A DNA stretch of 64,000 nucleotides from Escherichia coli (GTDB lineage Bacteria > Pseudomonadota > Gammaproteobacteria > Enterobacterales > Enterobacteriaceae): the NCBI RefSeq assembly GCF_013122565.1, contig NZ_CP053258.1, one strand, 5' to 3'. Shown piece by piece: positions 9,048 through 30,800 of this stretch. Position 1 is the first letter of the stretch, and every line of letters starts with the position of its first letter. The notes under the pieces are model-generated. The model did not search any database, was not told where the DNA came from, and saw only the letters and a list, made by a program, of their open reading frames with translations. Position numbers and translations under genes: made by a program.

Positions 9048-10251
9048 TCACCATCTTTTTGGATTACTGGGAAGTTGTGACATCACATAATCCGCCCACG
9101 CCTGCATCATCGGTATATGCTGATCCAGTAGATCAGTCCGGTGATATGCTGCCTCAACCTTATTTTTCAGCGTGTGGGCAAGCGCCCTTTCCGCCAAATC
9201 CCTGTTCACTACACCAGTCCCTGAATGTTGAACGAAAACCATGTGCTGTTGCCACCCGTCCGGGTATATCACTGATGGCATTCTTTTTACGCAGAAAACT
9301 CGTCAACACCATATCTGAAAGGATCTGCTGCTTTCTGGGAGAAGGAAACACCAGTTCATCATGCAAACCACGTATATTTTCCAGAACGTGAATGGCCTGC
9401 CGGGATAAAGGAATACGATGCTGTATCCTAGCTTTCATTCTTTCTGCTGGTATCGTCCATATCCGCTTATGAAAATCAATTTCAGCCCAGCGCATTCCCC
9501 TGGCTTCGCCCGAACGGGTTGCTGTAAGTATCACCATTAATAACAGTGCTCGGGTAACATTATAAGGTTCATCTGTATACACGCTTGTCGCCACAAACAG
9601 CGGTAATTGCCTCCAGGGCATTGCCGGCTGATGTTCATCACGTCCTCTTGATTGCTGTGGAAGCAAATGTTCAACCACATCAACAGGATTTGCCACACAA
9701 AAACCATGCGCCCAGCCCCACTGCATAACAACATGAATACGCTGTTTAATCCGGCTTGCCGTTTCTGATAAGGTCAACCAGATTGGACGCAGTGTCTCTG
9801 CCACGTCCGCAGCCGTAATCTCATTCAGCGTTTTTGCTCCCAATTGAGGAAACACGTAATTTTCAAGCGTCGACAACCACTGCCTGACATGCTTTGGATT
9901 TTCCCATCCCGGTGACAATTCTGCATGTACACGCATGGCTGCATCGGCAAATGTTGGGATAACAACTTTTTCAGCTTCAGCCTTTTTGATCTCCAGAGGA
10001 TCATCACCTGCAGCAAGTTGCTCTCGCATTATCCGGGCAGTACGTGCAGCTTCGGCAATACTGACCTCAGGGTAAGTTCCCAATCCAGCATTACGCCTTT
10101 TTTGTGTCACCGGACTTACATAACGAAAAACCCATTTACCCCGCCCCTTTACTGAAGAAGGATGAAGGGTCAGCCCTGTAATTCCCCCATGAGGCAATGG
10201 TTTGTCATCAGGTTTGATATGCCTTGCTTTTGTATCAGTCAATACTGCCAT
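9048..10251 (-). pseudogene. P4-type tyrosine integrase, frameshifted near 9191-9207.
   Basis: The N-terminus is MAVLTDTKARHIKPDDKPLPHGGITGLTLHP (P4-like arm domain), followed by the HGFRSTFRDWCSE box. The expected C-terminus RDLAERALAHTLKNKVEAAYHRTDLL, containing the catalytic Tyr, lies in a different frame (ORF 9048-9281). Confidence 0.8.
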
Positions 10252-20296: not shown

Positions 20297-22855
20297 TTAT
20301 CCCTTAATGACGAACGCGTAGTAGTTGCCGCCTTCCGTTGCGCCAACAAGCAGGACATGGTTCAGCGCAAGTTTCATCGACTGGCGTACAAAATTCACAC
20401 GCTCATCAAAGAATTCCACCGTATTTGGAATCGCAGGTACTGCCTGCTTCTTAATGCAGTCAGTAATCACGGCGAGGTTAAGCAAACCAGCGGCAGAGGC
20501 GACAAAACCAAAGCAAGCGTTGTAGTTCACTACCGGCACCGCCGGGTTTTGCGCAGCGAAGGTGTTGTAAATGGCGTCAATTTCGATACGAGAATGGTCA
20601 TCGCTGCCGTTGCTGGTACCACAGACCAAATCAATATCGCCAGCAGAGATGCCCGCATGCGTAAGGGCGCGTTCAATGGCCAGCGCCATCGACGCGGATT
20701 TTTCTTCCAACAATGAGGCGTCGAAGTAGGTATTACTACATGACTTACCGTAGCCCACCACTTCCGCGAGAACCTCAGCGCCACGCGCCGCAGCCAACTG
20801 TGGATCTTCCAGCAGCAGCATGCAGGCACCCTCGCCCGGAACATAACCCTGCGGATCTTTACCGTAAATTTGATAGTCGCTCGCCTCAGCCGTCATGTGG
20901 ATCTTTTGCGTCACCGCATCCATATACAGCGACATAGACGGGAAGTACTCATCCGCGCCGCCAACCAATACCTGCGGTTGCAGGTTCTGCCGGACGATTT
21001 CATAACCGTAGGTCAGCGCGCCCAGCGCCGAGTTTTCCCCTGTCGCAAGCGTAGTGGTATACCCTTTGATCCCTTCAGAGATCCCGCAGAACGTTGGGAT
21101 CGCATTCATCAGCGAGCCAGGAAATTCCGACGTACGTACTTTGCGTGGATCGGGTTTCAGACTTTGCAGATATTTGTAGGTGGTTTCCTGCGGACCGCGG
21201 GACATCCCCATGATCATGCCCAGCTCATCGCCATCGCGTTTGATTTTACGCTTCGCCTGTTCCAGCGCTTCGGTGAGTGCGATCAGGGCAAACGTGCCGC
21301 CACGGGTCGCTTTACGCTGATCGAAACGACGCAGGTGTTTACGCGGCTCCAGCCCGGAAACCTGGAACGTTTTAAAGTTGCTTGCCGTTTCCGGAAGCGT
21401 AGCGTCGCTGAAGCTGTACTCTTCATCAAACAGCTCGGCAAACTGGTTTGATTCATCCAGCACGGCCAGCAGCTCTTTGGCTTCTTCCAGTGTATCGTCC
21501 GGGAAGGTTACGCTACCCAGTTCAACGTGGTGGTCCTGCGCCCAGATGTTTTCCAGAACCTGGTTGAGCGTGTGGCCTATTGCGGATACTGCACCGACGC
21601 CCGAGATAGCCACACGCTTCGAATCATAGGTACTGACCGGAATGGACGCGGGCTCCATGCTCAGGATCATGCAGCAATTGTTGCCGCCGAAGGCATAGTT
21701 ATTCTTCATGAAGATGTTCACTTTGCGATCGCGAAATTCATTCGGCACATAGTCCAGATCGCAATTCGGGCGTGCCTGGCTGAAATTCAGCGTCGGCAGT
21801 ACGCGGTTGTCCGGCAGTGTTGCCAGACAGGCAATCAGTTCCACAATCCCCGCTGCGCCAATGTTGTGGCCAAAGTAAGATTTGGTGGAGCTCACCAGCA
21901 GTTTATCGTGGTTAGCGAAGACCTTTTTCATTGCCAGCGTTTCGATACGGTCATTGGCTTCGGTACCCGTACCGTGCGCGTTGACGTAATCGATTTGCTC
22001 CGGGGTTACGCCCGCATTTGCCATTGCCTTGTTCATGACCTGCACCGCTCCGCTGGCACGCGGATCTGGCCCGGTTTCATGGAAAGCATCGCAGGAAGTG
22101 GCGTAAGAGAGGATCTCACCATAAATGGTCGCCCCGCGTGCTACGGCGTGCTCATACTCTTCCAGCACGATAGCGCCAGCGCCTTCACCAATCGACATAC
22201 CGGACTGACCCGAGAACGGCGTACAAGTGTCTGGATGCATGACATTCAGTGCGTAGAATCCGGCAAAGGTCGGCAGATAGATGGGCTCGGTACCTACTGC
22301 CAGCATGGTTTTGCTTTTACCATTCTGGATGTAGTCAAAGGCCATCCCCACGGCGTTCGGGCTGGCGGTACACGCGGTCGCCACCAGTTCAACCCCGCCC
22401 TGTAAGCCCAGCAGCGTTGAAACGCTGGAACAACATGATGAGAACGCGCCGGAAAAAAGTGCTTTGCGCAGCGAGAAATCTTCCATGCGCTGTTCGAACA
22501 GCGGTAAAAAGGCCTCTGTACCCGCGGAGGAAACACCGACGATCATGCCTGTTTCTTTGAGAGTGTCACGGCTATCCATCAGGCCGGCCTGACTCAGCGC
22601 ATCTTTACCCACTTTGTAGGCCCAGAGCGCTGCGTTATCCAGTGAATCGATAACATCTTCGTTCAGATCGGAGTATTCAATGTCATGCAACACTTCTGCC
22701 GCACGCGCATTTTCAAACCATTTTGCAAAGCGTTCGCTATCCTTAACGCCATTTTTTTTATTTAATAATGCTTCCCGGAAATCCTGAATATTTTCCGCCA
22801 GTGAGGACAAAATCCCCAGCCCGGTAATAACAACTCTTTTCCTGTTCGTTTTCAT
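20297..22855 (-). CDS. Fused KS - CLF-like didomain protein (852 aa).
   Basis: The N-terminal half has a complete Cys-His-His set (ATACTASPNA, NAHGTGTEAND, KSYFGHNIGAAG). The C-terminal half is KS-like but lacks all three residues (LATGENSALG, GTSNGSDDH, ACFGFVASAAG), as in chain-length factors. Confidence 0.8.
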   Translation of the reverse strand: MKTNRKRVVITGLGILSSLAENIQDFREALLNKKNGVKDSERFAKWFENARAAEVLHDIEYSDLNEDVIDSLDNAALWAYKVGKDALSQAGLMDSRDTLKETGMIVGVSSAGTEAFLPLFEQRMEDFSLRKALFSGAFSSCCSSVSTLLGLQGGVELVATACTASPNAVGMAFDYIQNGKSKTMLAVGTEPIYLPTFAGFYALNVMHPDTCTPFSGQSGMSIGEGAGAIVLEEYEHAVARGATIYGEILSYATSCDAFHETGPDPRASGAVQVMNKAMANAGVTPEQIDYVNAHGTGTEANDRIETLAMKKVFANHDKLLVSSTKSYFGHNIGAAGIVELIACLATLPDNRVLPTLNFSQARPNCDLDYVPNEFRDRKVNIFMKNNYAFGGNNCCMILSMEPASIPVSTYDSKRVAISGVGAVSAIGHTLNQVLENIWAQDHHVELGSVTFPDDTLEEAKELLAVLDESNQFAELFDEEYSFSDATLPETASNFKTFQVSGLEPRKHLRRFDQRKATRGGTFALIALTEALEQAKRKIKRDGDELGMIMGMSRGPQETTYKYLQSLKPDPRKVRTSEFPGSLMNAIPTFCGISEGIKGYTTTLATGENSALGALTYGYEIVRQNLQPQVLVGGADEYFPSMSLYMDAVTQKIHMTAEASDYQIYGKDPQGYVPGEGACMLLLEDPQLAAARGAEVLAEVVGYGKSCSNTYFDASLLEEKSASMALAIERALTHAGISAGDIDLVCGTSNGSDDHSRIEIDAIYNTFAAQNPAVPVVNYNACFGFVASAAGLLNLAVITDCIKKQAVPAIPNTVEFFDERVNFVRQSMKLALNHVLLVGATEGGNYYAFVIKG

Positions 22856-22928
22856 GAATAATACCTGTCAATCCCGCCTATTGGGGTTAATTTAAGCCGC
22901 GTAAGCTATAGTCACGCGGCGATATTCA

Positions 22929-24089
22929 TTACGCAGCGCTTTTATTTTTTGACGCGTCGATATAACTGTGCTCAGTTGGGCTAACCAACATGCTCAGGTT
23001 ATAAATAAACGGCATACATTTTGATTGCGCCGGAATAATTCCGTGAGCAGTTTGAATTTCGTAGCCGCTGATGTCAGACCAGGCGTAATCATTATCCAGC
23101 AGAGTCAGGGCAATGAAACGCTGCAACGCTGGGGAAAAGAGTGCCTTCACGATATAGCCCACGTCTTGACCTTCCACCAGCACACGATCGCCAGCCTCAA
23201 TGCCTTCGCATTCTTCCTGAGCGATCATGCCGATGAGTTTATTACCGGTATACTCCTGGGAGAGCTCTGTCACCGCGTCCTTGCCAATAAAATCATCTTT
23301 GTCGTACTGCACCGCCCACTGCATCTGCAACTGAACCGGATTCACTGCCTGACCTTCCCAGAGGCTGGCATCCCAGCACGGATTTTCGAGGCGTACGATT
23401 TTTTGATAATCCAGGCCGCCGGTCTGCATCAGGTATTTCTCGCCGACGGTTAACAGTTTTTCCCACTGCTCCGCCAGTTTCGCCTGCTCACCGATGGTCA
23501 TGTACGCATACTCACCGTGTTTACCACAGCGGAAGATCAGCAGATCCTCCTCGGTATTCATGTATTCGTAGTAAGGCAGGCCAATAACGTCAAAGCCATG
23601 AATTTCAGACATGATCTCCCAGGAGTATGGGCCTTCGAGCAGGATTGCCCCCCAGTTGTTTTCCCGCATATCCTGAATTTCAGGCATCGATTGAATATCC
23701 AGTTCTTCCGCTTTTTCGAGAATGGTATTCATGCTGGCGATCAATTCGGCAGCCGAAATATCTTCTGAAAGCAGGTAATAACCGTCAATGCTGCACAGCA
23801 CATAGACGTCTCCGCGAATGGTGCCCTCTTCATTCAACACCAGTGAGTAGATTGCCTGCTCATCACGAATGATGGAGACATCTGCGGAAACCAGCTGGTT
23901 GATCAGCGCCCAGGCATCATCGCCCATGACGCTAACAATAGAGAGGTGAGAATAGTCCACCAGCAGCGCGTTTTCACGAACGGCTTTATATTCGGTCATA
24001 GCATCGTGATAAGAAGAAGGTAGGGTACGGTTGTTATATACCCCCATTACCGCATTATTTTTCAAGTGAAATTCAGCAAGAGATTTCAT
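22929..24089 (-). CDS. GcvT/aminomethyltransferase-family (folate-binding) protein.
   Basis: 386 aa. The pattern EYKAVRENALLVDYSHLSIVSVMGDDAWALINQLVSADV...YSLVLNEEGTIRGDVYV follows the GcvT family N-terminal layout. Confidence 0.7.
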   Translation of the reverse strand: MKSLAEFHLKNNAVMGVYNNRTLPSSYHDAMTEYKAVRENALLVDYSHLSIVSVMGDDAWALINQLVSADVSIIRDEQAIYSLVLNEEGTIRGDVYVLCSIDGYYLLSEDISAAELIASMNTILEKAEELDIQSMPEIQDMRENNWGAILLEGPYSWEIMSEIHGFDVIGLPYYEYMNTEEDLLIFRCGKHGEYAYMTIGEQAKLAEQWEKLLTVGEKYLMQTGGLDYQKIVRLENPCWDASLWEGQAVNPVQLQMQWAVQYDKDDFIGKDAVTELSQEYTGNKLIGMIAQEECEGIEAGDRVLVEGQDVGYIVKALFSPALQRFIALTLLDNDYAWSDISGYEIQTAHGIIPAQSKCMPFIYNLSMLVSPTEHSYIDASKNKSAA

Positions 24090-24124
24090 AAACGTGTCCT
24101 GATAATTAATTCTTTAATAAGTAG

Positions 24125-24406
24125 TTAATCGTTGTTCTTTTGAATAACGAAGGTGGCCAGACTATTGATACTGCGCATATAGGACGGGTCGTCACTTTCG
24201 CTGATCTTGATATCAAATACTTTATCCAGCAGAACGACAATTTCCGTTGCATCGACGGAGTCCAGTTTAAAACCATTACCAAACAGCGCAGTATCATCAT
24301 CAATTTGCGCTTCATCGCGTTGAATATTCAGTCGCTGGATGATCTCAGTTTTAATGGTCATCAGAACTTCTTTACGCTGTTCAATAGCGTCATTCATGGT
24401 AGACAT
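24125..24406 (-). CDS. Acyl carrier protein.
   Basis: 93 aa and acidic. The phosphopantetheine-site context is GFKLDSVDATEIVVLLD. Confidence 0.85.
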   Translation of the reverse strand: MSTMNDAIEQRKEVLMTIKTEIIQRLNIQRDEAQIDDDTALFGNGFKLDSVDATEIVVLLDKVFDIKISESDDPSYMRSINSLATFVIQKNND

Positions 24407-24427: not shown

Positions 24428-24976
24428 TTACTTGGTTTCACGGAAATTGATAATGGTGCCCTGACTAATCAGCTTTTTACCGACGTACGCGGTCACGGAA
24501 TAGTGTTTAAAGCCACTGGCATCCGAAAAAGCCAATTTGCTGACAACATCAATAGAATCACCCGGATAGGCGATATCTTTAAATTTCAGGTTCTGAGCAG
24601 CCAGCACGCCGCGTACCTGGCTGCGCCGGGTACGGATAATCTCCAGCATTTCAGGGCGGTGAATGCGTGCGTGAATATCACGTAACGACTTCAGCTCTTC
24701 CTCAAAACGTTCGCGCCAGATATCGCAAATGTCGGTCAGGAAAGAGAGATACTCGCTGGCCTGGCCGAAGATTTCCGAAATAATCACCCCGGGCATAATC
24801 GGATCTTCCGGGAAATGCCCCAGTAGATACGGTTCGTTATAGGTGACGTGCTTCACGACACTGACAAAGCCATTTTCACCGTATTTATAATCTGCAATTT
24901 TATCGACCATCAGCAGCGGCTGACGCCAGCCGCCCATTTCGAGGAAGATTTTCGAAGGAATCGTGTATTTGGACAT
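24428..24976 (-). CDS. FabZ/FabA-like 3-hydroxyacyl-ACP dehydratase (hotdog fold).
   Basis: The block GHFPEDPIMPGVIISEIFGQA matches the FabZ active-site block HFPxxPxMPGV. Confidence 0.8.
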   Translation of the reverse strand: MSKYTIPSKIFLEMGGWRQPLLMVDKIADYKYGENGFVSVVKHVTYNEPYLLGHFPEDPIMPGVIISEIFGQASEYLSFLTDICDIWRERFEEELKSLRDIHARIHRPEMLEIIRTRRSQVRGVLAAQNLKFKDIAYPGDSIDVVSKLAFSDASGFKHYSVTAYVGKKLISQGTIINFRETK

Positions 24977-24979
24977 AAA

Positions 24980-25744
24980 TCACCGCATGACCAGGCCGCC
25001 ATCGATAACGATGGTCTGGCCGACAATGTAGCTGGAGGCAGAGGAACTTAAGAAGACGATGGTGTTCGCCACTTCTTCACATTTACCCAGACGGCGTAAC
25101 GGGATGGTACTGGTTACCGCACGGACCACTGCGCGGGATACTTTTTTCACCATTTTCGATTCAATCATTCCCGGTGCGACCGCGTTGACGCGCACGCCCC
25201 AGGGTGCCATTTCTGCTGCCAGCGTGCGGGTGAAGCCTAGGATCGCCCCTTTTGACGCGCTGTAATTCGCCTGACCGACGCTTGGGATCAGCGCTGCAAT
25301 AGAGGCAACGTTAATAATGGCGGGATTTTCTGCCGCACGAAGCAACATCAGCGCGTCTTTCGTCAGACGGAAAATGCTGAACATGTTGGTTTCGATAACT
25401 TGGGTGAAATCCTCATAGCTCATCGAGGCAAACAGGCTGTCTTTAACGATGCCCGCGTTATTCACCAGCACATCAATCTTGCCAGCTTCGCGCTCTATCT
25501 GTTCGCACAATGCGCTCACACTCTGGGGGCAGGCGAGATCGCACTGCACAATATGCAGTTTATCGCCTGCAGGATGGCTTGCTTTCAGCGCCGTTAATTG
25601 CACGTCGTTGGATTTATAGAGCGCATAAACATCGCAGTTCTGCTCCAGATATTTTTCACAAATACCCAGTCCAATATCACCACTGGCTCCTGTCACCAGT
25701 ACGGTTTTTTCATTTAAATCATTATATTTGTACATATTCATCAT
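24980..25744 (-). CDS. 3-oxoacyl-ACP reductase (FabG-like SDR).
   Basis: Motifs TGASGDIG, NNAG and YSASK. The start is uncertain (ATGs at 25744, 25741 and 25735). The TTG start used by the track would overlap acpS. Confidence 0.85.
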   Translation of the reverse strand: MMNMYKYNDLNEKTVLVTGASGDIGLGICEKYLEQNCDVYALYKSNDVQLTALKASHPAGDKLHIVQCDLACPQSVSALCEQIEREAGKIDVLVNNAGIVKDSLFASMSYEDFTQVIETNMFSIFRLTKDALMLLRAAENPAIINVASIAALIPSVGQANYSASKGAILGFTRTLAAEMAPWGVRVNAVAPGMIESKMVKKVSRAVVRAVTSTIPLRRLGKCEEVANTIVFLSSSASSYIVGQTIVIDGGLVMR

Positions 25745-25754
25745 ATATGTTGAG

Positions 25755-26123
25755 TTAATAAACGATGACAGTCGCAATGGCGTGGGTACGGCAATGCGAA
25801 ATACTCAGGGAGTTATTTTGCAACCCCTGCCCGAGAAAAATTTCTTGTAGTCTTCCGGAAATAACGAAATAAGGTGCTTTGGCCGCATCATGCTTTATTT
25901 CAATATCCTGGAAACGTACGCCATCACGAAAACCACAACCAATCGCTTTAACTAACGCTTCTTTCGCCGCCCAGAATCCAGAGGCCCGTTCATAATCAGG
26001 TTCTGCAGGATTAATGAGTAAGCGCTCATGAGCAGTATAAACACGCTCATAAAAAGCCATCTCTCCATTAATAATGGCTTTGGTTATTCTGGCAATTTCA
26101 ACAATATCTGTTCCTATTCTCAT
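25755..26123 (-). CDS. Holo-ACP synthase (AcpS-type 4'-phosphopantetheinyl transferase).
   Basis: 122 aa. [13 protein letters not shown]... and [13 protein letters not shown] are typical of AcpS. Confidence 0.85.
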
Positions 26124-26138
26124 TAGTCTCGTTATCCT

Positions 26139-27758
26139 TTACATTTGGTACGAAAAATTAAAATTTATATTCACCCGATCAATATCTAATGTCGCCGGGT
26201 ACTTTAATGGGGTAGAAACGGAAAAGTTATACTCAAGACTTTTTATGTTTCCATCAATACCAACTGCCGCGCCCACCAGTGATTCATCGCCATAAGAAGC
26301 GTCCTGATACACTTGCCCAAAATCAAGACCGGCATAATAATTAGCTTTCATTCCAGGCAAAGGAAATGCCAGCGTATTTTTTATATAAAAACCATCATTC
26401 CCTGACAAACCTACGCTATTTTCAAACCCGCGAATACTCCAACGATCGCCAACTGTAATTTGATCTTGCAAAGTCAGTTCACACGGTGCGTACTGGGCAA
26501 AAAAAGCGGTATTGTAATATCCATTATCTATTTGTCGGGTATAGTTACCCTCAAAATTAAAGATATTGCTTACCGGGCTAACGTCGCCATATTGCATATT
26601 CGGCGTTTTTTCACCACCGAACCAAGTTAAAAAGCGTTGCCACGAGAGGGTTGAATCCCAGAACGCGCCGGGTAACTGTTGCTTATAATTTAGCCCCAGC
26701 TTGATATTTCCCATATCCCGCGCCTGTAATGTCAGCTCCTCACCATTAAGCGTGTAATTCGACTTTCGTCGAATGAGTTCTGCACTCCCGGCGAATTTTT
26801 TTGTTTTATCGCGATAAACGGTACGCGTCGCCTTTGCGCTCAAGTATTCGCTGGTGCCAACATAATCCAGCGAGATGTACGAAAGCGGAATCACCTGCTG
26901 CGATTTACTTTTGCTATAGAAAAAGCCGTACTCCCAGTACCCCACCGGAATGGAATAATAGCTACTGACGTTTTCGTACTGTCCAGTAGTACTACGCGTA
27001 CCGGCGAGATAAAACAGATCCCCCATTTTCGCTGGATTAAACAGATAACCCACCGCGGTTGTCTGGTAACGGCCCGTTTCTTCATCGCCCCAATTGTTGT
27101 AACTTGCCCGAACGCTCCAGTTTTTGCCCCGGTGTGTATCAATATGAACGATGCTGTAACCATCCCGTGTTCCCGGTTCAATATTAATTTTCACATCAAC
27201 GTCAGGTACTCGCTGAAGATTTTCCAGCCCCTGTTCAATATCGCGAATATTGAGAATATCGTTACGCTGAAAAGGTAACATCCATTCACTGATATCATTA
27301 CCTTCCACAATCGTTTTTTCTATCTTCCCGGCATTAACCTGGAAACGTAGCTTGCCTTTAGAAATATCCTGCGAAGGGATACTAATTCGCGTTGTGATAT
27401 ATCCGGCATTAATATAATAATCCTGCAAGGCAGCAGCAATTTTTTGCACACCAGCACTACCGACACAACGTCCGGCAATCGCTTTTTGCACTTCAGAAAT
27501 AAACTGACCATCCAGAAAGTTATCTTCCAGTTCAATCCGATTAATGATAAAGCAATTCTTTTCCTGCGGTAGATCACTCAGAGTAAACGCATTACGTTGT
27601 GCATTTGAGTAAACATCTTTTTTTTCTAATTTATGCGCGCGTAACGTGCTTTCATCTGCATTTTTTTGCTGCTTGATCAAATTATCAATACTGTCTTTCG
27701 CTGCAACCTGAAAACAACAAAGAATGAGCAGCAAACCAAAATTAAATCGTAATTGCAT
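26139..27758 (-). CDS. TpsB outer-membrane transporter (ShlB/FhaC/HecB family).
   Basis: 539 aa with a signal peptide, a POTRA-like N-terminal region and a beta-barrel ending NFSYQM. It lies directly downstream of a TpsA. Confidence 0.85.
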   Translation of the reverse strand: MQLRFNFGLLLILCCFQVAAKDSIDNLIKQQKNADESTLRAHKLEKKDVYSNAQRNAFTLSDLPQEKNCFIINRIELEDNFLDGQFISEVQKAIAGRCVGSAGVQKIAAALQDYYINAGYITTRISIPSQDISKGKLRFQVNAGKIEKTIVEGNDISEWMLPFQRNDILNIRDIEQGLENLQRVPDVDVKINIEPGTRDGYSIVHIDTHRGKNWSVRASYNNWGDEETGRYQTTAVGYLFNPAKMGDLFYLAGTRSTTGQYENVSSYYSIPVGYWEYGFFYSKSKSQQVIPLSYISLDYVGTSEYLSAKATRTVYRDKTKKFAGSAELIRRKSNYTLNGEELTLQARDMGNIKLGLNYKQQLPGAFWDSTLSWQRFLTWFGGEKTPNMQYGDVSPVSNIFNFEGNYTRQIDNGYYNTAFFAQYAPCELTLQDQITVGDRWSIRGFENSVGLSGNDGFYIKNTLAFPLPGMKANYYAGLDFGQVYQDASYGDESLVGAAVGIDGNIKSLEYNFSVSTPLKYPATLDIDRVNINFNFSYQM

Positions 27759-27777
27759 TATCTTCTCAAACTAAATA

Positions 27778-27838
27778 AAGACAGCAGCAACCCCTGCGTG
27801 ACATGACGCATTAATATTAAATGCCACTGCTGTCTTTG
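27778..27838. repeat. 11-bp inverted repeat (aaagacagcag / ctgctgtcttt) with a 39-nt spacer in the tpsA-tpsB gap.
   Basis: Read directly. On the transcribed (minus) strand the second arm is followed by atttagttt. This could be a partial terminator or processing site. Confidence 0.5.
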
Positions 27839-27846
27839 GTTACATC

Positions 27847-30800
27847 TTACATGCCGACAATAGTACCGGTGTTGTCAGTTTCGTTTGCTTCTAACGCTAA
27901 ACCGTAGAAGCCACCGAGAACAGCGTCTTTACCGCTATTCGTAACCTTATTTGCCGATACGCCAGCGACACCATAACTCAGCATATTGAGGTAGTTATAA
28001 ATATTACCGGTGGTTTTAACACCCAGAGAATAATCACCCACAATATTTCCACGGTTATTAATGTCATTCACGGCATTGATCGCGATGGTTTGTCCCAACA
28101 TATTACTGTTGCTGTTGTTGGTAACATACTTCTGCGTATCAATAGTCAGCGCAGTTCCCGCCACAATGTCTTTAAAGTTCTCAACACCGTTCAGGGCATT
28201 AATGGTCAGCGCGTTGTCCGCTGCGATGGCATTACGGTTATACAGCGTGCCTTTCAGAACATTGAAATGCACATCCCCTTTACCGCTGATCCAACCATAG
28301 TTAGTGACGCTGTTATCAACGTTCAGATCTAGGTTTTTGTCAGACGCAATCACGCCCGTGGCGGTATTGTCTTCCAGACGACCATCACTGGCGTTACTCA
28401 ACGACGCCGCATAAACATCGAGATTACCGGCGCTGTAAGTGGTGGCATAGTTGTTGTAGAACATACCAGCCGCACGGATGATGGCATCAGCCCCACTGCT
28501 AAGAAGCGCGCGGGTATTATCCAGCGTTCCCCTGGACAGCAGATTAAGCGGACCATTTTCAGCGATGATGCTGCTGTTATTGTTGTAGACGTTCTGAGCA
28601 GAAAGCGTGACACCTTCTTTACCCACAATGCCACCAACGTTGTCAGTAATACCGAAAACTTCACCGTTATAACGCAGGAAGTTATTCCCGTCGCGGTTTT
28701 CGAGGTTGCCGCCAGCGTTAATAACCAGCTTTTTATTCGCCGCGATCAGCGCAGTGTTGTTGTAAATCGTCGATTTAGCATCGACAGAAACATTCTCACC
28801 GGCAATCAAACCATAGGCGTTGTCTACAATGTTCGCCGTCAGAGTCACGTCGCCCGTTTCAGAGGTCAGCGAGCCCTTAAAACTGTCGTAGTTGCCCGTC
28901 AGTGCCAGCGTGACGTCGTCATAACCACGAATTTCACCGTAGTCGTTGTTCAGATTGCTGCCTTTTACAGACAACACGCCGTTCAACGCATGCAGCTTAC
29001 CGCGGTTGTTACCCACGTTGCCCTTCGAATCGATAATCAGATCGCCTGTCGCTTCGATGGTCGCGTTATTGTTGGCCACGCTATTTGCCGTTAATGCGAC
29101 ATCCCCATAACCCACCATATAGAGATAGTTATACAGGTTGCCTTTGGTTGTCACGTTCAGGTCAACATCACTGACAATGTTGCCACGGTTGTTGATATCG
29201 TTAACCGCGTTAATAACGATATTCTGCCCCACCATATTGCTGTTGGAGTTGTTGGTCACATGGCGATTGGTGTTCATCGTCAGGTCGCCGCCAGCAGAAA
29301 TATCCTTCCAGTTTTCAATACCGTTCAGTGCTGCAATGTCCAACCCCTTTTCAGCCGCAATAGTATTGCGGTTGTACAGGTTGCCATTTTTCACCGTGAC
29401 ATCAACATCACCTTTACCGCTGATCCAGCCGTAGTTGGTAAGGCTATTCACCACTTCCAGTGACAGATTTTTGTCAGATGCAATGAACCCGGTCGCATTG
29501 TTATCGATCATCGTACCGCTGCTGCTGTTTTGCAGCGTGGTCGCGTCGATATCCAGGTTGCCCGCACTCCAGGTGGTAGCGTAGTTGTTGTAATACGTTC
29601 CGCCAACCTGAATAGATGCATCCGCCCCGCTGATGACCAGAGCTCGCGTGTTGTCGAACGTGTTCTGCGCCTGCAGAGTCAGAGGACCATCCTCAGCGAT
29701 AATACGGCTGTTGTTGTTATAGATGTTCTGCCCGGAAAGCTCGATGCCTTCCTTGCCGACCATTCCACCCGTTTGCTGAGGCATGCCGAAGTACTGACCA
29801 TAAGCATTACCGAAGTTATTGCCATCGCGGTTTTCGATACTGCCGCGCGCATTTATCTTCAGTTTTTTGCTGGCCACGATCAGCGCTGTGTTGTTATTGA
29901 CGCCAGACATCGACTCCATCGTGATGTTCTGCCCCATCATGAAGCCGCCGTGGTTATCCACGGAGTTGGCTAACAGGGAGATATCACCCTCTTCAGAGCT
30001 GATCACGCCAATATTATTGGTCAGGCTGCCGCCAACGGCGACTTCAATACCCTGCTTACCGCTGATCCCCCCGGTATCGTTACGCAGAGAGCTTCCCTTG
30101 ATAATCACTTTGCTGTTGGACAGAATTTTGCCCGCATAGTCGTCGATCGTGCTGTAACTTGACAGGGAGACGTTGCCATTAGACGCAATCTGTCCGCCAT
30201 TGTTATTGATGTTGTTCGCACCAATTTCTACGCCGGTATCTGCAATAATGCCCAGAGAGTCAGAACTGCCGGTATCGGCGGTTTTGGTTGAACCATTATT
30301 TACGCTACCTGCCGCACCAATAACGATATGCCCGGTGGACGAACGGATCAGACCTTTGTTGTTATCCACATTACCGTTACTGATAATGGCGATATCGCCA
30401 GTGGTCTGGATATCACCGCTGTTGTTATTCAACGCGCCTGATTCAAGCCCCACATAACCGCCGCGAATCTGACCATTGCTGTTGTTGAGCGTTCCGGTTT
30501 TCAGCGCCACGAGCCCCGCTTCAATCCCGACAGAACTCCCTTTACCAGAGTTAATCAGCGTGGCGTTATTGGTATCAACCGCCAGCATACCTGCTGCGGC
30601 GAGCTTGCCGTTGGTGTTATCAATCGTGCCACTGTTAACGTAGATATCGCCCATCGTAGAGATGTTACCCGCACGGGTATTCACGATAGTATTCTTGTTG
30701 GTATTAAGCGAGATAGTGCCTACAGATGTCACCGTACCGGTGGTGTTATCCAGAGTACCATTTGTTGTCAGGTTGATCGTGCTTGCAGACTGAATCTGGG

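Follow-up and report, generated by a model that had tools for sequence, protein, structure and literature searches.

A GcvT-fold protein paired with acyl carrier protein: a candidate folate-independent subunit of an aryl polyene-related gene cluster in Escherichia coli

Within a 64,000-nucleotide stretch of Escherichia coli DNA (contig NZ_CP053258.1; hereafter the window), we examined a gene of the GcvT family that lies in an operon between the genes for an acyl carrier protein (ACP) and for a ketosynthase (KS) fused to a chain length factor (CLF)-like partner. The encoded protein has the predicted fold of the glycine cleavage T-protein and appears to represent a separate subfamily, in which canonical tetrahydrofolate (THF) binding has been lost and in which a phosphopantetheinyl ACP would have replaced the lipoyl-bearing H-protein as partner. 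We tentatively favour, with slightly less than even confidence, the interpretation that the protein is a folate-independent ACP partner in a highly reducing type II polyketide synthase (PKS)/fatty acid synthase (FAS)-like cassette related to the aryl polyene clusters, working by the mechanism proposed below. The more general claim, that it is an ACP-partner enzyme acting without folate, has in our judgement a modest balance of probability on its side. The T-protein fold, the pairing and natural fusions with ACP, the lost pterin contacts, the retained acidic residue, a new invariant lysine and the composition of the cassette are what the analysis shows; docking of ACP by way of the ancestral tunnel for the carrier arm, and the nature of the reaction, are inferred.

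The gene and its two immediate neighbours are as follows.

22929-24089, minus strand: GcvT-family gene with an ATG start, 386 aa (Pfam GCV_T and GCV_T_C; AlphaFold2 model)
24125-24406, minus strand: ACP gene, 93 aa (Pfam PP-binding, E 4.8e-6; motif KLDSVDATE, with the serine in LDSVD)
20297-22855, minus strand: KS/CLF-like didomain gene, 852 aa (two ketoacyl-synthase domain pairs; Pfam ketoacyl-synt twice)

The ACP gene lies upstream on the same strand at a distance of 35 nt (24090-24124) and the KS/CLF-like gene lies downstream, separated by 73 nt (22856-22928), exactly the arrangement that the initial annotation of this DNA had described. No terminator-like site was found in either gap. A hairpin without a T-run, GCCGCGT-N11-ACGCGGC, occurs in the 73-nt gap. 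It was not called as a terminator and might serve in the processing or stability of the mRNA.

A T-protein fold outside the curated families

Both domains of the GcvT superfamily are recognised above the Pfam gathering thresholds, GCV_T (PF01571) over residues 5-259 (E 3.7e-33; 115.3 bits against a threshold of 25.6) and GCV_T_C (PF08669) over residues 284-361 (E 1.7e-7; 31.4 bits against 25.9). The AlphaFold2 model (pLDDT 94, pTM 0.91) has the three-domain T-protein fold, with a TM-score of about 0.80 to the solved T-proteins 1WOS, 1YX2, 1V5V and 3A8K, compared with 0.78 for DmdA, 0.62 for YgfZ and 0.48-0.58 for Iba57. The two domains and the predicted fold together place the protein in the GcvT superfamily, as first annotated. 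None of the curated NCBIfam models for GcvT, DmdA, LigM, DesA, SoxA or TMAO demethylase reaches its cut-off with this protein. The models for GcvT proper are missed by a wide margin (TIGR00528, 99.1 vs. 235.85; NF001567, 136.2 vs. 300), as are those for the demethylases (DmdA, 74.1 vs. 410; DesA, 29.8 vs. 800; LigM, 27 vs. 580). Neither gcvH nor gcvP is present in the annotated 41-kb neighbourhood, where the partner gene encodes ACP. The YgfZ/Iba57 signature KGC(Y/F)xGQE, with its essential cysteine, was not found either: the matching region, around K264, reads YDKDDFIGK and contains no cysteine.

The family has features of its own. W157, R187, K190, E193, Y196, N236 and K264 are invariant, and E235 and S366 can be counted with R187, K190, E193, N236 and K264 as polar or charged residues that do not vary over the range of 25-100% identity. 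These give a subfamily signature, R187-x-G-K190-H/T-G-E193-x-x-Y196 with W157, N236 and D94, to which is added a C-terminal extension of the form PFxxNxS...Px(x)HSY, with P360 and S366 near-invariant. The new invariants and the conserved tail appear to mark off a separate subfamily of the GcvT fold.

In databases, these proteins go under 'aminomethyltransferase family protein' or, incorrectly, under 'glycine cleavage system T'; in RefSeq the identical gene bears the former name and is flanked by an 'acyl carrier protein' and a 'beta-ketoacyl-ACP synthase family protein'. RefSeq and JGI names of the type 'glycine cleavage system aminomethyltransferase T' would suit a hitch-hiking paralogue of the housekeeping T-protein or, equally outside the lipid pathway, a catabolic demethylase of the DmdA/LigM type. 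However, all curated family cut-offs are missed, gcvH and gcvP are absent nearby, and the position in the cassette is invariant in more than 100 loci and accompanied by fusions to ACP, as described below. This conservation of context effectively excludes such an origin, the probability of which we consider negligible. The housekeeping label is a misnomer for the subfamily, and the present analysis corrects it.

Loss of the canonical folate contacts

In human GcvT, THF is contacted by Met56, Asp101, Tyr197, Glu204 and Arg233; the first four recur without variation in TrmE and dimethylglycine oxidase, and Arg233 is specific to GcvT (PMC9551070). Glu204 makes a double hydrogen bond to the pterin, Tyr197 shapes the pocket, and Asp101 takes the proton from N10, which then attacks the methylene carbon borne by the lipoyl arm (PMC9551070). 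The glutamate is the single THF contact common to all THF-dependent demethylenases of the superfamily, for example SesA and BrdA (PMC5547118). In the folate-independent proteins Iba57 and YgfZ, Glu204 is replaced by a hydrophobic residue, Tyr197 is lost and Asp101 is kept, although the Asp101 equivalent is dispensable in Iba57 (PMC9551070).

We tabulated the corresponding residues for 119 members of the family and, as controls, for three true GcvTs. Columns were placed by gap-free HMMER alignments to 1WOO, 1YX2, 1V5V and 3A8I and by a motif table, in which the hallmark GYTGE(D)G(F/Y)E aligns with GKHGEYAYM of the window protein.

Human Met56, window L49: variable hydrophobic, with Met in most enterobacterial orthologues
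Human Asp101, window D94: Asp or Glu in 118 of 119
Human Tyr197, window K190: Lys in 116 of 119
Human Glu204, window M197: no Glu in any member; Met, Leu, Gln or Lys in enterobacterial members, and Leu, Gly, Asp, Trp, Ser and others elsewhere
Human Arg233, window Q229: Gln, Leu, His or Val, never Arg

Three of the five contacts (Tyr197, Glu204 and Arg233) are lost family-wide, and neither the full set of canonical THF residues of GcvT proper nor the pterin-binding glutamate of the demethylases is found. By this comparison, canonical THF binding appears to have been lost in the subfamily.

The initial annotation had proposed a THF-dependent one-carbon (C1) step on the starter or the chain, which would be transferred a C1 unit or demethylated while bound to ACP; ACP would then stand in for H-protein. 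The proposal has points in its favour, namely a genuine GcvT fold that is nearest to real T-proteins, retention of the Asp101 equivalent in all but one member, a swinging-arm carrier encoded next door, as in gcvT-gcvH, and an aspartate in the Glu204 column of 13 of the 83 distant members. Yet Tyr197 has become lysine, the Glu204 column never contains glutamate and Arg233 has gone throughout the family, all of these being canonical contacts (PMC9551070), and it is precisely the glutamate that every THF-dependent demethylenase keeps (PMC5547118). The variable residues at the former pterin edge indicate relaxed constraint, and no folate or C1 genes recur in the neighbourhood. The comparison of folate-binding residues with GcvT, DmdA and YgfZ, by which the annotation had suggested that its idea be judged, therefore came out against it: the residues are lost and only Asp101 is kept, as in Iba57, leaving the folate-dependent hypothesis unsupported. 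Non-canonical folate binding would be compatible with the sequence, so that folate-dependent C1 chemistry is made unlikely, not disproved; we regard it as quite improbable.

An ACP is the constant partner of the subfamily

To place the gene in a wider context we scanned for close orthologues, using one genome per species and an alignment of ten orthologues, and compared all 17 proteins of the cluster with the resulting 36 loci by tblastn. The whole cluster is kept, in the same order and orientation, in 32 of these, in hosts that include Enterobacter, Kosakonia, Mixta, Izhakiella, Buttiauxella, Tenebrionibacter, Silvania, Rahnella, Serratia, Klebsiella oxytoca, a Neisseria sp. and an Acinetobacter sp., among others. 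A divergent version, with GcvT-like proteins of 40-47% identity, occurs in Proteus mirabilis, Providencia burhodogranariea and Serratia rubidaea and shares the core order AcpS-KR-DH-ACP-GcvT-KS-KS (AcpS, holo-ACP synthase; KR, ketoreductase; DH, dehydratase). Synteny of the ACP, GcvT-like and KS/CLF genes holds in 35 of the 36 loci, across many genera. The sole exception, from Salmonella enterica strain s1 (locus L031, 10001-11149), is a 382-aa open reading frame (ORF) of 48% identity, located close to putA and adjacent to genes for fimbrial usher and chaperone proteins, with no ACP or KS genes. We considered and rejected this ORF as a counter-example to the linkage, since it is a lone relic in which several residues that never vary among the orthologues have been substituted; it is apparently a remnant of an island similar to O-island 47 (OI-47) of E. 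coli O157:H7. The degeneracy of the only copy outside a cluster counts in favour of a subunit that works with ACP.

Distant relatives, of 25-42% identity, were recovered by an exhaustive HMMER search over 1.84 billion representatives, and a scan of metagenomes with 20 distant members added 80 further loci. Unlike true T-proteins, these relatives align over the C-terminal 40 residues. They stand in the context ACP-GcvT-like-KS/KS didomain or, at minimum, ACP-GcvT-like, with synteny preserved even at 25-35% identity. Two architectures are seen in the metagenomes, one in which between one and three KS/KS didomain genes come after the ACP-GcvT-like pair, and one with the order KS/KS didomain-ACP-GcvT-like-KR-AT-DH (AT, acyltransferase). 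In 35/36 genome loci, and in 69 of the 70 distant loci with enough upstream sequence, the GcvT-like gene is immediately preceded on its own strand by an ACP gene, at a median gap of 41-52 nt, and in locus L041 the pair is kept even though no KS is nearby. Moreover, seven natural ACP-GcvT-like fusions were found (L066, L068, P0150, P0163, P0185, P0249 and P0251). L066 and L068 are in-frame fusions in metagenomic loci, and five independent database cluster representatives of 459-477 aa combine PP-binding, GCV_T and GCV_T_C domains and carry both the ACP motif GLxLDSVDAxE and the family signature.

The subfamily is spread over Proteobacteria, Myxococcota and environmental metagenomes, and its arrangement, recurring in more than 100 independent loci, is far beyond chance. 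The conserved linkage and the fusions indicate that the GcvT-like gene is no peculiarity of E. coli, and that it encodes an ancient core subunit whose primary partner is ACP. The view first put forward, that the gene belongs functionally to a lipid or PKS operon, is thus strongly supported by the synteny in the genome loci, by the relatives of 25-35% identity and by the fusions.

In loci L039 and L040 (9575-18604; GCA_036704275.1), the ACP-GcvT-like pair precedes three consecutive KS/KS didomain genes of about 800-830 aa each, accompanied by a short-chain dehydrogenase/reductase (SDR) gene, two acyltransferase genes and an adjoining type II secretion operon. The three-didomain layout, an unusual multi-KS type II assembly, was also observed in metagenome loci L047-L051, L058 and L120.

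The cassette resembles a minimal highly reducing synthase

Among the 77 loci of at least 8 kb, KS genes are present in 70, KR in 66, DH in 58 and AT in 53. A census of neighbours, in which 148 other ORFs from 28 distant loci were analysed with Pfam, revealed no other family in more than three of the 28, and AMP-ligase, FabH, thioesterase, S-adenosylmethionine (SAM) methyltransferase and folate or C1 genes are none of them recurrent. Taken together, the cassette counts and the census define a minimal machine of KS/CLF, ACP, GcvT-like protein, KR, AT and DH, in which no enzyme is assigned to chain initiation or chain termination.

Alignment of the catalytic triad columns over 63 didomain proteins showed Cys-His-His in the N-terminal KS domain of the 852-aa protein in 35/35 orthologues, and Glu, Thr and Phe at the triad positions of its C-terminal domain. 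The latter is an inactive CLF-like partner, fused to the KS and distinct from the Gln type, glutamine being found in the CLF-like domain of 3/35 enterobacterial and 0/28 distant proteins. With an active KS and inactive CLF-like partner, a discrete ACP, KR and DH, and no enoyl reductase annotated in the island, the operon has the full complement expected of a highly reducing type II PKS. Genes for an aryl starter (an acyl-AMP ligase such as ApeH, or a tyrosine ammonia-lyase (TAL) or chorismate lyase) were not found in the annotated island, nor are they recurrent in the 28 distant loci.

The closest comparison for the cassette as a whole is with the aryl polyene clusters and other highly reducing type II PKSs, which likewise have a KS with an inactive CLF-like partner, KR, an ApeI-like DH and a dedicated ACP and lack an enoyl reductase. 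An export block of LolA-like and transporter genes is also shared with the aryl polyene clusters. The differences are that no aryl-starter enzymes were found here, that KS and CLF are fused and that a GcvT-like subunit is present; to our knowledge, aryl polyene clusters are without such a subunit. We class the operon as a variant within the highly reducing type II PKS/aryl polyene kind. The resemblance is extended by locus L106, from a gut metagenome, where a distant GcvT-like member lies in a plainly aryl polyene-like cluster with LpxL-like and PlsC-like acyltransferases, GT2, MMPL, a 4HBT thioesterase, an FMN-reductase-SCP2 fusion, DedA and two ACPs. The thioesterase gene is directly 3' of the GcvT-like gene, and the second ACP gene is beside the KS, while the GcvT-like gene keeps an ACP of its own. 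Loci L108, L110, L113 and L122, from gut and other metagenomes, similarly have a GcvT-like member in an aryl polyene/flexirubin-like cluster.

These features bear on the idea of a starter-unit module, in which the GcvT-like protein would make the KS primer from an ACP-loaded group, for instance by decarboxylation of malonyl-ACP to acetyl-ACP, and would thereby replace the ApeH/ApeE loading pair of aryl polyene clusters or the Gln-type CLF of aromatic type II PKSs. The CLF-like domain mostly lacks the glutamine and there is no recurrent KSIII or AMP-ligase; in L106, moreover, the KS has a second ACP beside it and a thioesterase co-exists with the GcvT-like gene, as might be expected if the latter served initiation. 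The new invariant cavity lysine could, in addition, bind a carboxylate. However, decarboxylation by a GcvT fold is without precedent, the minimal cassettes have a single ACP, and the usual place of a loading enzyme, as a gene or as a fused domain, is upstream of its carrier, whereas the fusions here run from ACP to GcvT-like domain. FabF-type KS domains are, besides, capable of self-priming. We consider a starter-unit role unlikely.

A proposed mechanism for the GcvT-like protein and its ACP

The loss of the folate residues combined with the constant pairing with a carrier suggests that the protein probably acts on the carrier-bound chain independently of folate. It probably targets the carbon that the phosphopantetheine sulfur carries, either to off-load the chain or to process the starter, a reaction that we infer from the features described above. 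In our model, ACP would dock in the manner of H-protein on T-protein, with its pantetheine arm entering the central cavity. There D94, the equivalent of human Asp101, would activate water or an acceptor as the nucleophile, held in a former pterin pocket that would be remodelled with the invariant residues Lys190, Trp157 and Asn236. Attack of the nucleophile on the thioester carbon would then release or transfer the chain and regenerate holo-ACP. In the chemistry of T-protein, a nucleophile attacks the carbon at the carrier thiol and the thiol leaves; carried over to a thioester, this amounts to hydrolysis or acyl transfer, which is why off-loading is favoured among the candidate steps, although as a specific assignment off-loading or transfer remains rather doubtful. 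By analogy only, the order of ACP followed by enzyme, in genes and fusions, parallels the ACP-thioesterase order of type I systems. More broadly, the T-protein/H-protein pair may have been re-invented as a T-like/ACP pair, so that the subfamily would form a new class of carrier-protein-dependent enzyme catalysing a folate-independent step at the pantetheine sulfur in type II polyketide or lipid pathways (chain release, transfer or primer formation); we put this forward cautiously, as a proposal with somewhat less than an even chance of being right.

As a carrier-arm-dependent enzyme, the protein would be most similar in its mode of working to T-protein with H-protein. In common with the glycine cleavage T-protein (GcvT, also AMT) it has the three-domain fold (TM about 0.8), the catalytic aspartate and a small swinging-arm carrier encoded in the adjacent gene. 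It differs from them in that the carrier is a phosphopantetheinyl ACP and not lipoyl-H, that Tyr197, Glu204 and Arg233 are lost, that an extra conserved C-terminal tail is present, that the TIGR00528 and NF001567 cut-offs are failed and that the gcvH/gcvP context is missing. DmdA (TM 0.78), LigM/DesA and SesA/BrdA are comparable as stand-alone GcvT-fold enzymes recruited to substrates other than glycine. However, the THF-dependent demethylases and demethylenases keep the pterin-binding glutamate (PMC5547118) and use free small molecules, and the window protein scores far below their cut-offs.

The resemblance to YgfZ and Iba57, which serve in Fe-S cluster maturation, is of another kind. Here too the fold derives from GcvT, and the pattern of loss is the same, with Glu204 replaced by hydrophobic residues, Tyr197 lost and Asp101 kept (PMC9551070). 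This pattern, together with the tight linkage and fusions to ACP, speaks for a non-catalytic role, in which a degenerate T-protein would shield the ACP-tethered chain or scaffold ACP onto the KS/CLF. On the other hand, the KGC(Y/F)xGQE signature and the essential cysteine are absent, the fold is far nearer to T-proteins than to YgfZ or Iba57 (TM just 0.48-0.62), and the context is PKS/FAS and not Fe-S. The invariance of R187, K190, E193, E235, N236, K264 and S366 from 25 to 100% identity, moreover, suggests a ligand-binding or catalytic site. We regard a purely structural role as quite unlikely.

Several points weigh against the folate-independent, off-loading interpretation. It is built on sequence, predicted fold and gene context. 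The conservation of Asp101 is weak evidence of catalysis, since the residue is also kept in dispensable form in Iba57. The aspartates in the Glu204 column of some distant members leave room for another folate or cofactor site, and the loss of the canonical contacts would be compatible with a non-canonical site of this kind. Thioesterases are rare (3/28 loci), but the 4HBT thioesterase that adjoins the gene in L106 would make a release role partly redundant there, so the case for the GcvT-like protein as the missing thioesterase is ambiguous. Finally, a CLF-like domain without the priming glutamine and the absence of KSIII fit a role in chain initiation equally well.

No published GcvT-fold or aminomethyltransferase subunit was found in the literature on ketosynthases, chain length factors and ACPs or on polyene, aryl polyene and polyketide systems. 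Nothing relevant was found under the O157 locus tags, and the O-island reviews confine their discussion of OI-47 to the regulator GrvA. If the interpretation holds, a new enzyme type would join the short list of core type II PKS/FAS components, and the aminomethyltransferase fold would have abandoned folate a second time, independently of YgfZ/Iba57, here with its new partner, ACP, identified. It also provides a handle on an orphan lipid cluster in the island of E. coli O157:H7 and O55:H7, and on the related clusters of Enterobacter, Klebsiella oxytoca, Proteus mirabilis and Providencia.

Genomic setting of the cluster in E. coli

The window belongs to a genomic island of E. coli that adjoins tRNA-Ser and ycdU, and the gene order of the island agrees with that of OI-47 in the literature. 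The remaining genes of the cluster and its borders are listed below.

11330-12316, in the minus-strand gene order: ycdU
12313-13257, minus strand: malonyl-CoA:ACP transacylase, FabD-like (Pfam Acyl_transf_1)
13268-18108, minus strand: export block comprising an ABC ATPase, a 218-aa protein, a MacB/FtsX-type permease, a LolA-like (TP_0789-like) protein and a 462-aa protein
18119-19072, minus strand: 317-aa protein without an assigned family (35 orthologues by jackhmmer)
19069-20292, minus strand: second, divergent KS-like gene (RefSeq start; the longest ORF extends to 20358; Pfam, alignment and RefSeq)
24428-24976, minus strand: FabZ/FabA-like (ApeI-like) dehydratase (Pfam FabA; weak ApeI-like match of the orthologue in locus L038)
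24980-25741, minus strand: SDR ketoreductase, FabG-like (Pfam adh_short and KR; RefSeq coordinates)
25755-26123, minus strand: dedicated holo-ACP synthase, an AcpS-type phosphopantetheinyl transferase (Pfam ACPS)
26139-27758, minus strand: TpsB of the ShlB/FhaC type
27847-31659, minus strand: TpsA-like hemagglutinin, 1270 aa

The GcvT-like gene is present in 381 of 5426 complete E. coli genomes at 95-100% identity, O157:H7 and O55:H7 included, and the top match of the window region is strain RM14516, at 100% identity. A shortened form of 287 aa (P0034; 97% identity, 72% query coverage) represents 143 sequences from NCBI E. coli chromosomes, which suggests that the gene has been truncated or frameshifted in one E. 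coli lineage.

In the second KS-like protein, the alignment shows a probable cysteine, then histidine, with tyrosine replacing the second histidine. The gene for the 317-aa protein lies downstream and overlaps it by 4 nt. This protein has no Pfam, NCBIfam or PDB match, and its 35 orthologues are all in enterobacterial-type clusters. Its comparison with KS revealed a faint likeness to the active-site helix, for which the hhalign probability is just 1%. The two proteins are possibly a second, cryptic KS/CLF-like pair. A metagenomic ORF of about 320 aa was considered as a counterpart of the 317-aa protein and rejected, being a protein with a twin-arginine (TAT)-like signal instead. This TAT-signal protein, which has no Pfam match (e.g. 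L078, 6572-7528), and a PD40/TolB-like beta-propeller protein (e.g. L092, 11323-12777) are the two families that recur in eight KS/CLF-ACP-GcvT-KR-AT-DH cassettes, and their presence hints at an envelope-directed product.

The export block was assigned from RefSeq annotation, Pfam analysis of the L038 orthologues and synteny in 32 loci; its 462-aa protein, to which no family was assigned, is possibly located in the outer membrane. The TpsA/TpsB two-partner secretion pair (26139-31659), directly upstream of AcpS, keeps this position in about 32 loci from many genera and is absent from the distant cassettes. According to RefSeq, the TpsA gene is frameshifted in the identical strain.

At its ycdU end, the cluster is flanked by ORFs for a phage-type integrase-like protein (9160-10251) and an IS200/IS605 transposase (10542-11051); the identical region in RefSeq carries a frameshifted IS200/IS605 tnpA, with ISEc31 adjoining it. 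Low-GC blocks were observed in the window at about 6-10 kb, 32-34 kb and 40-46 kb. The integrase, the transposase and the low-GC blocks are consistent with a mosaic mobile island.

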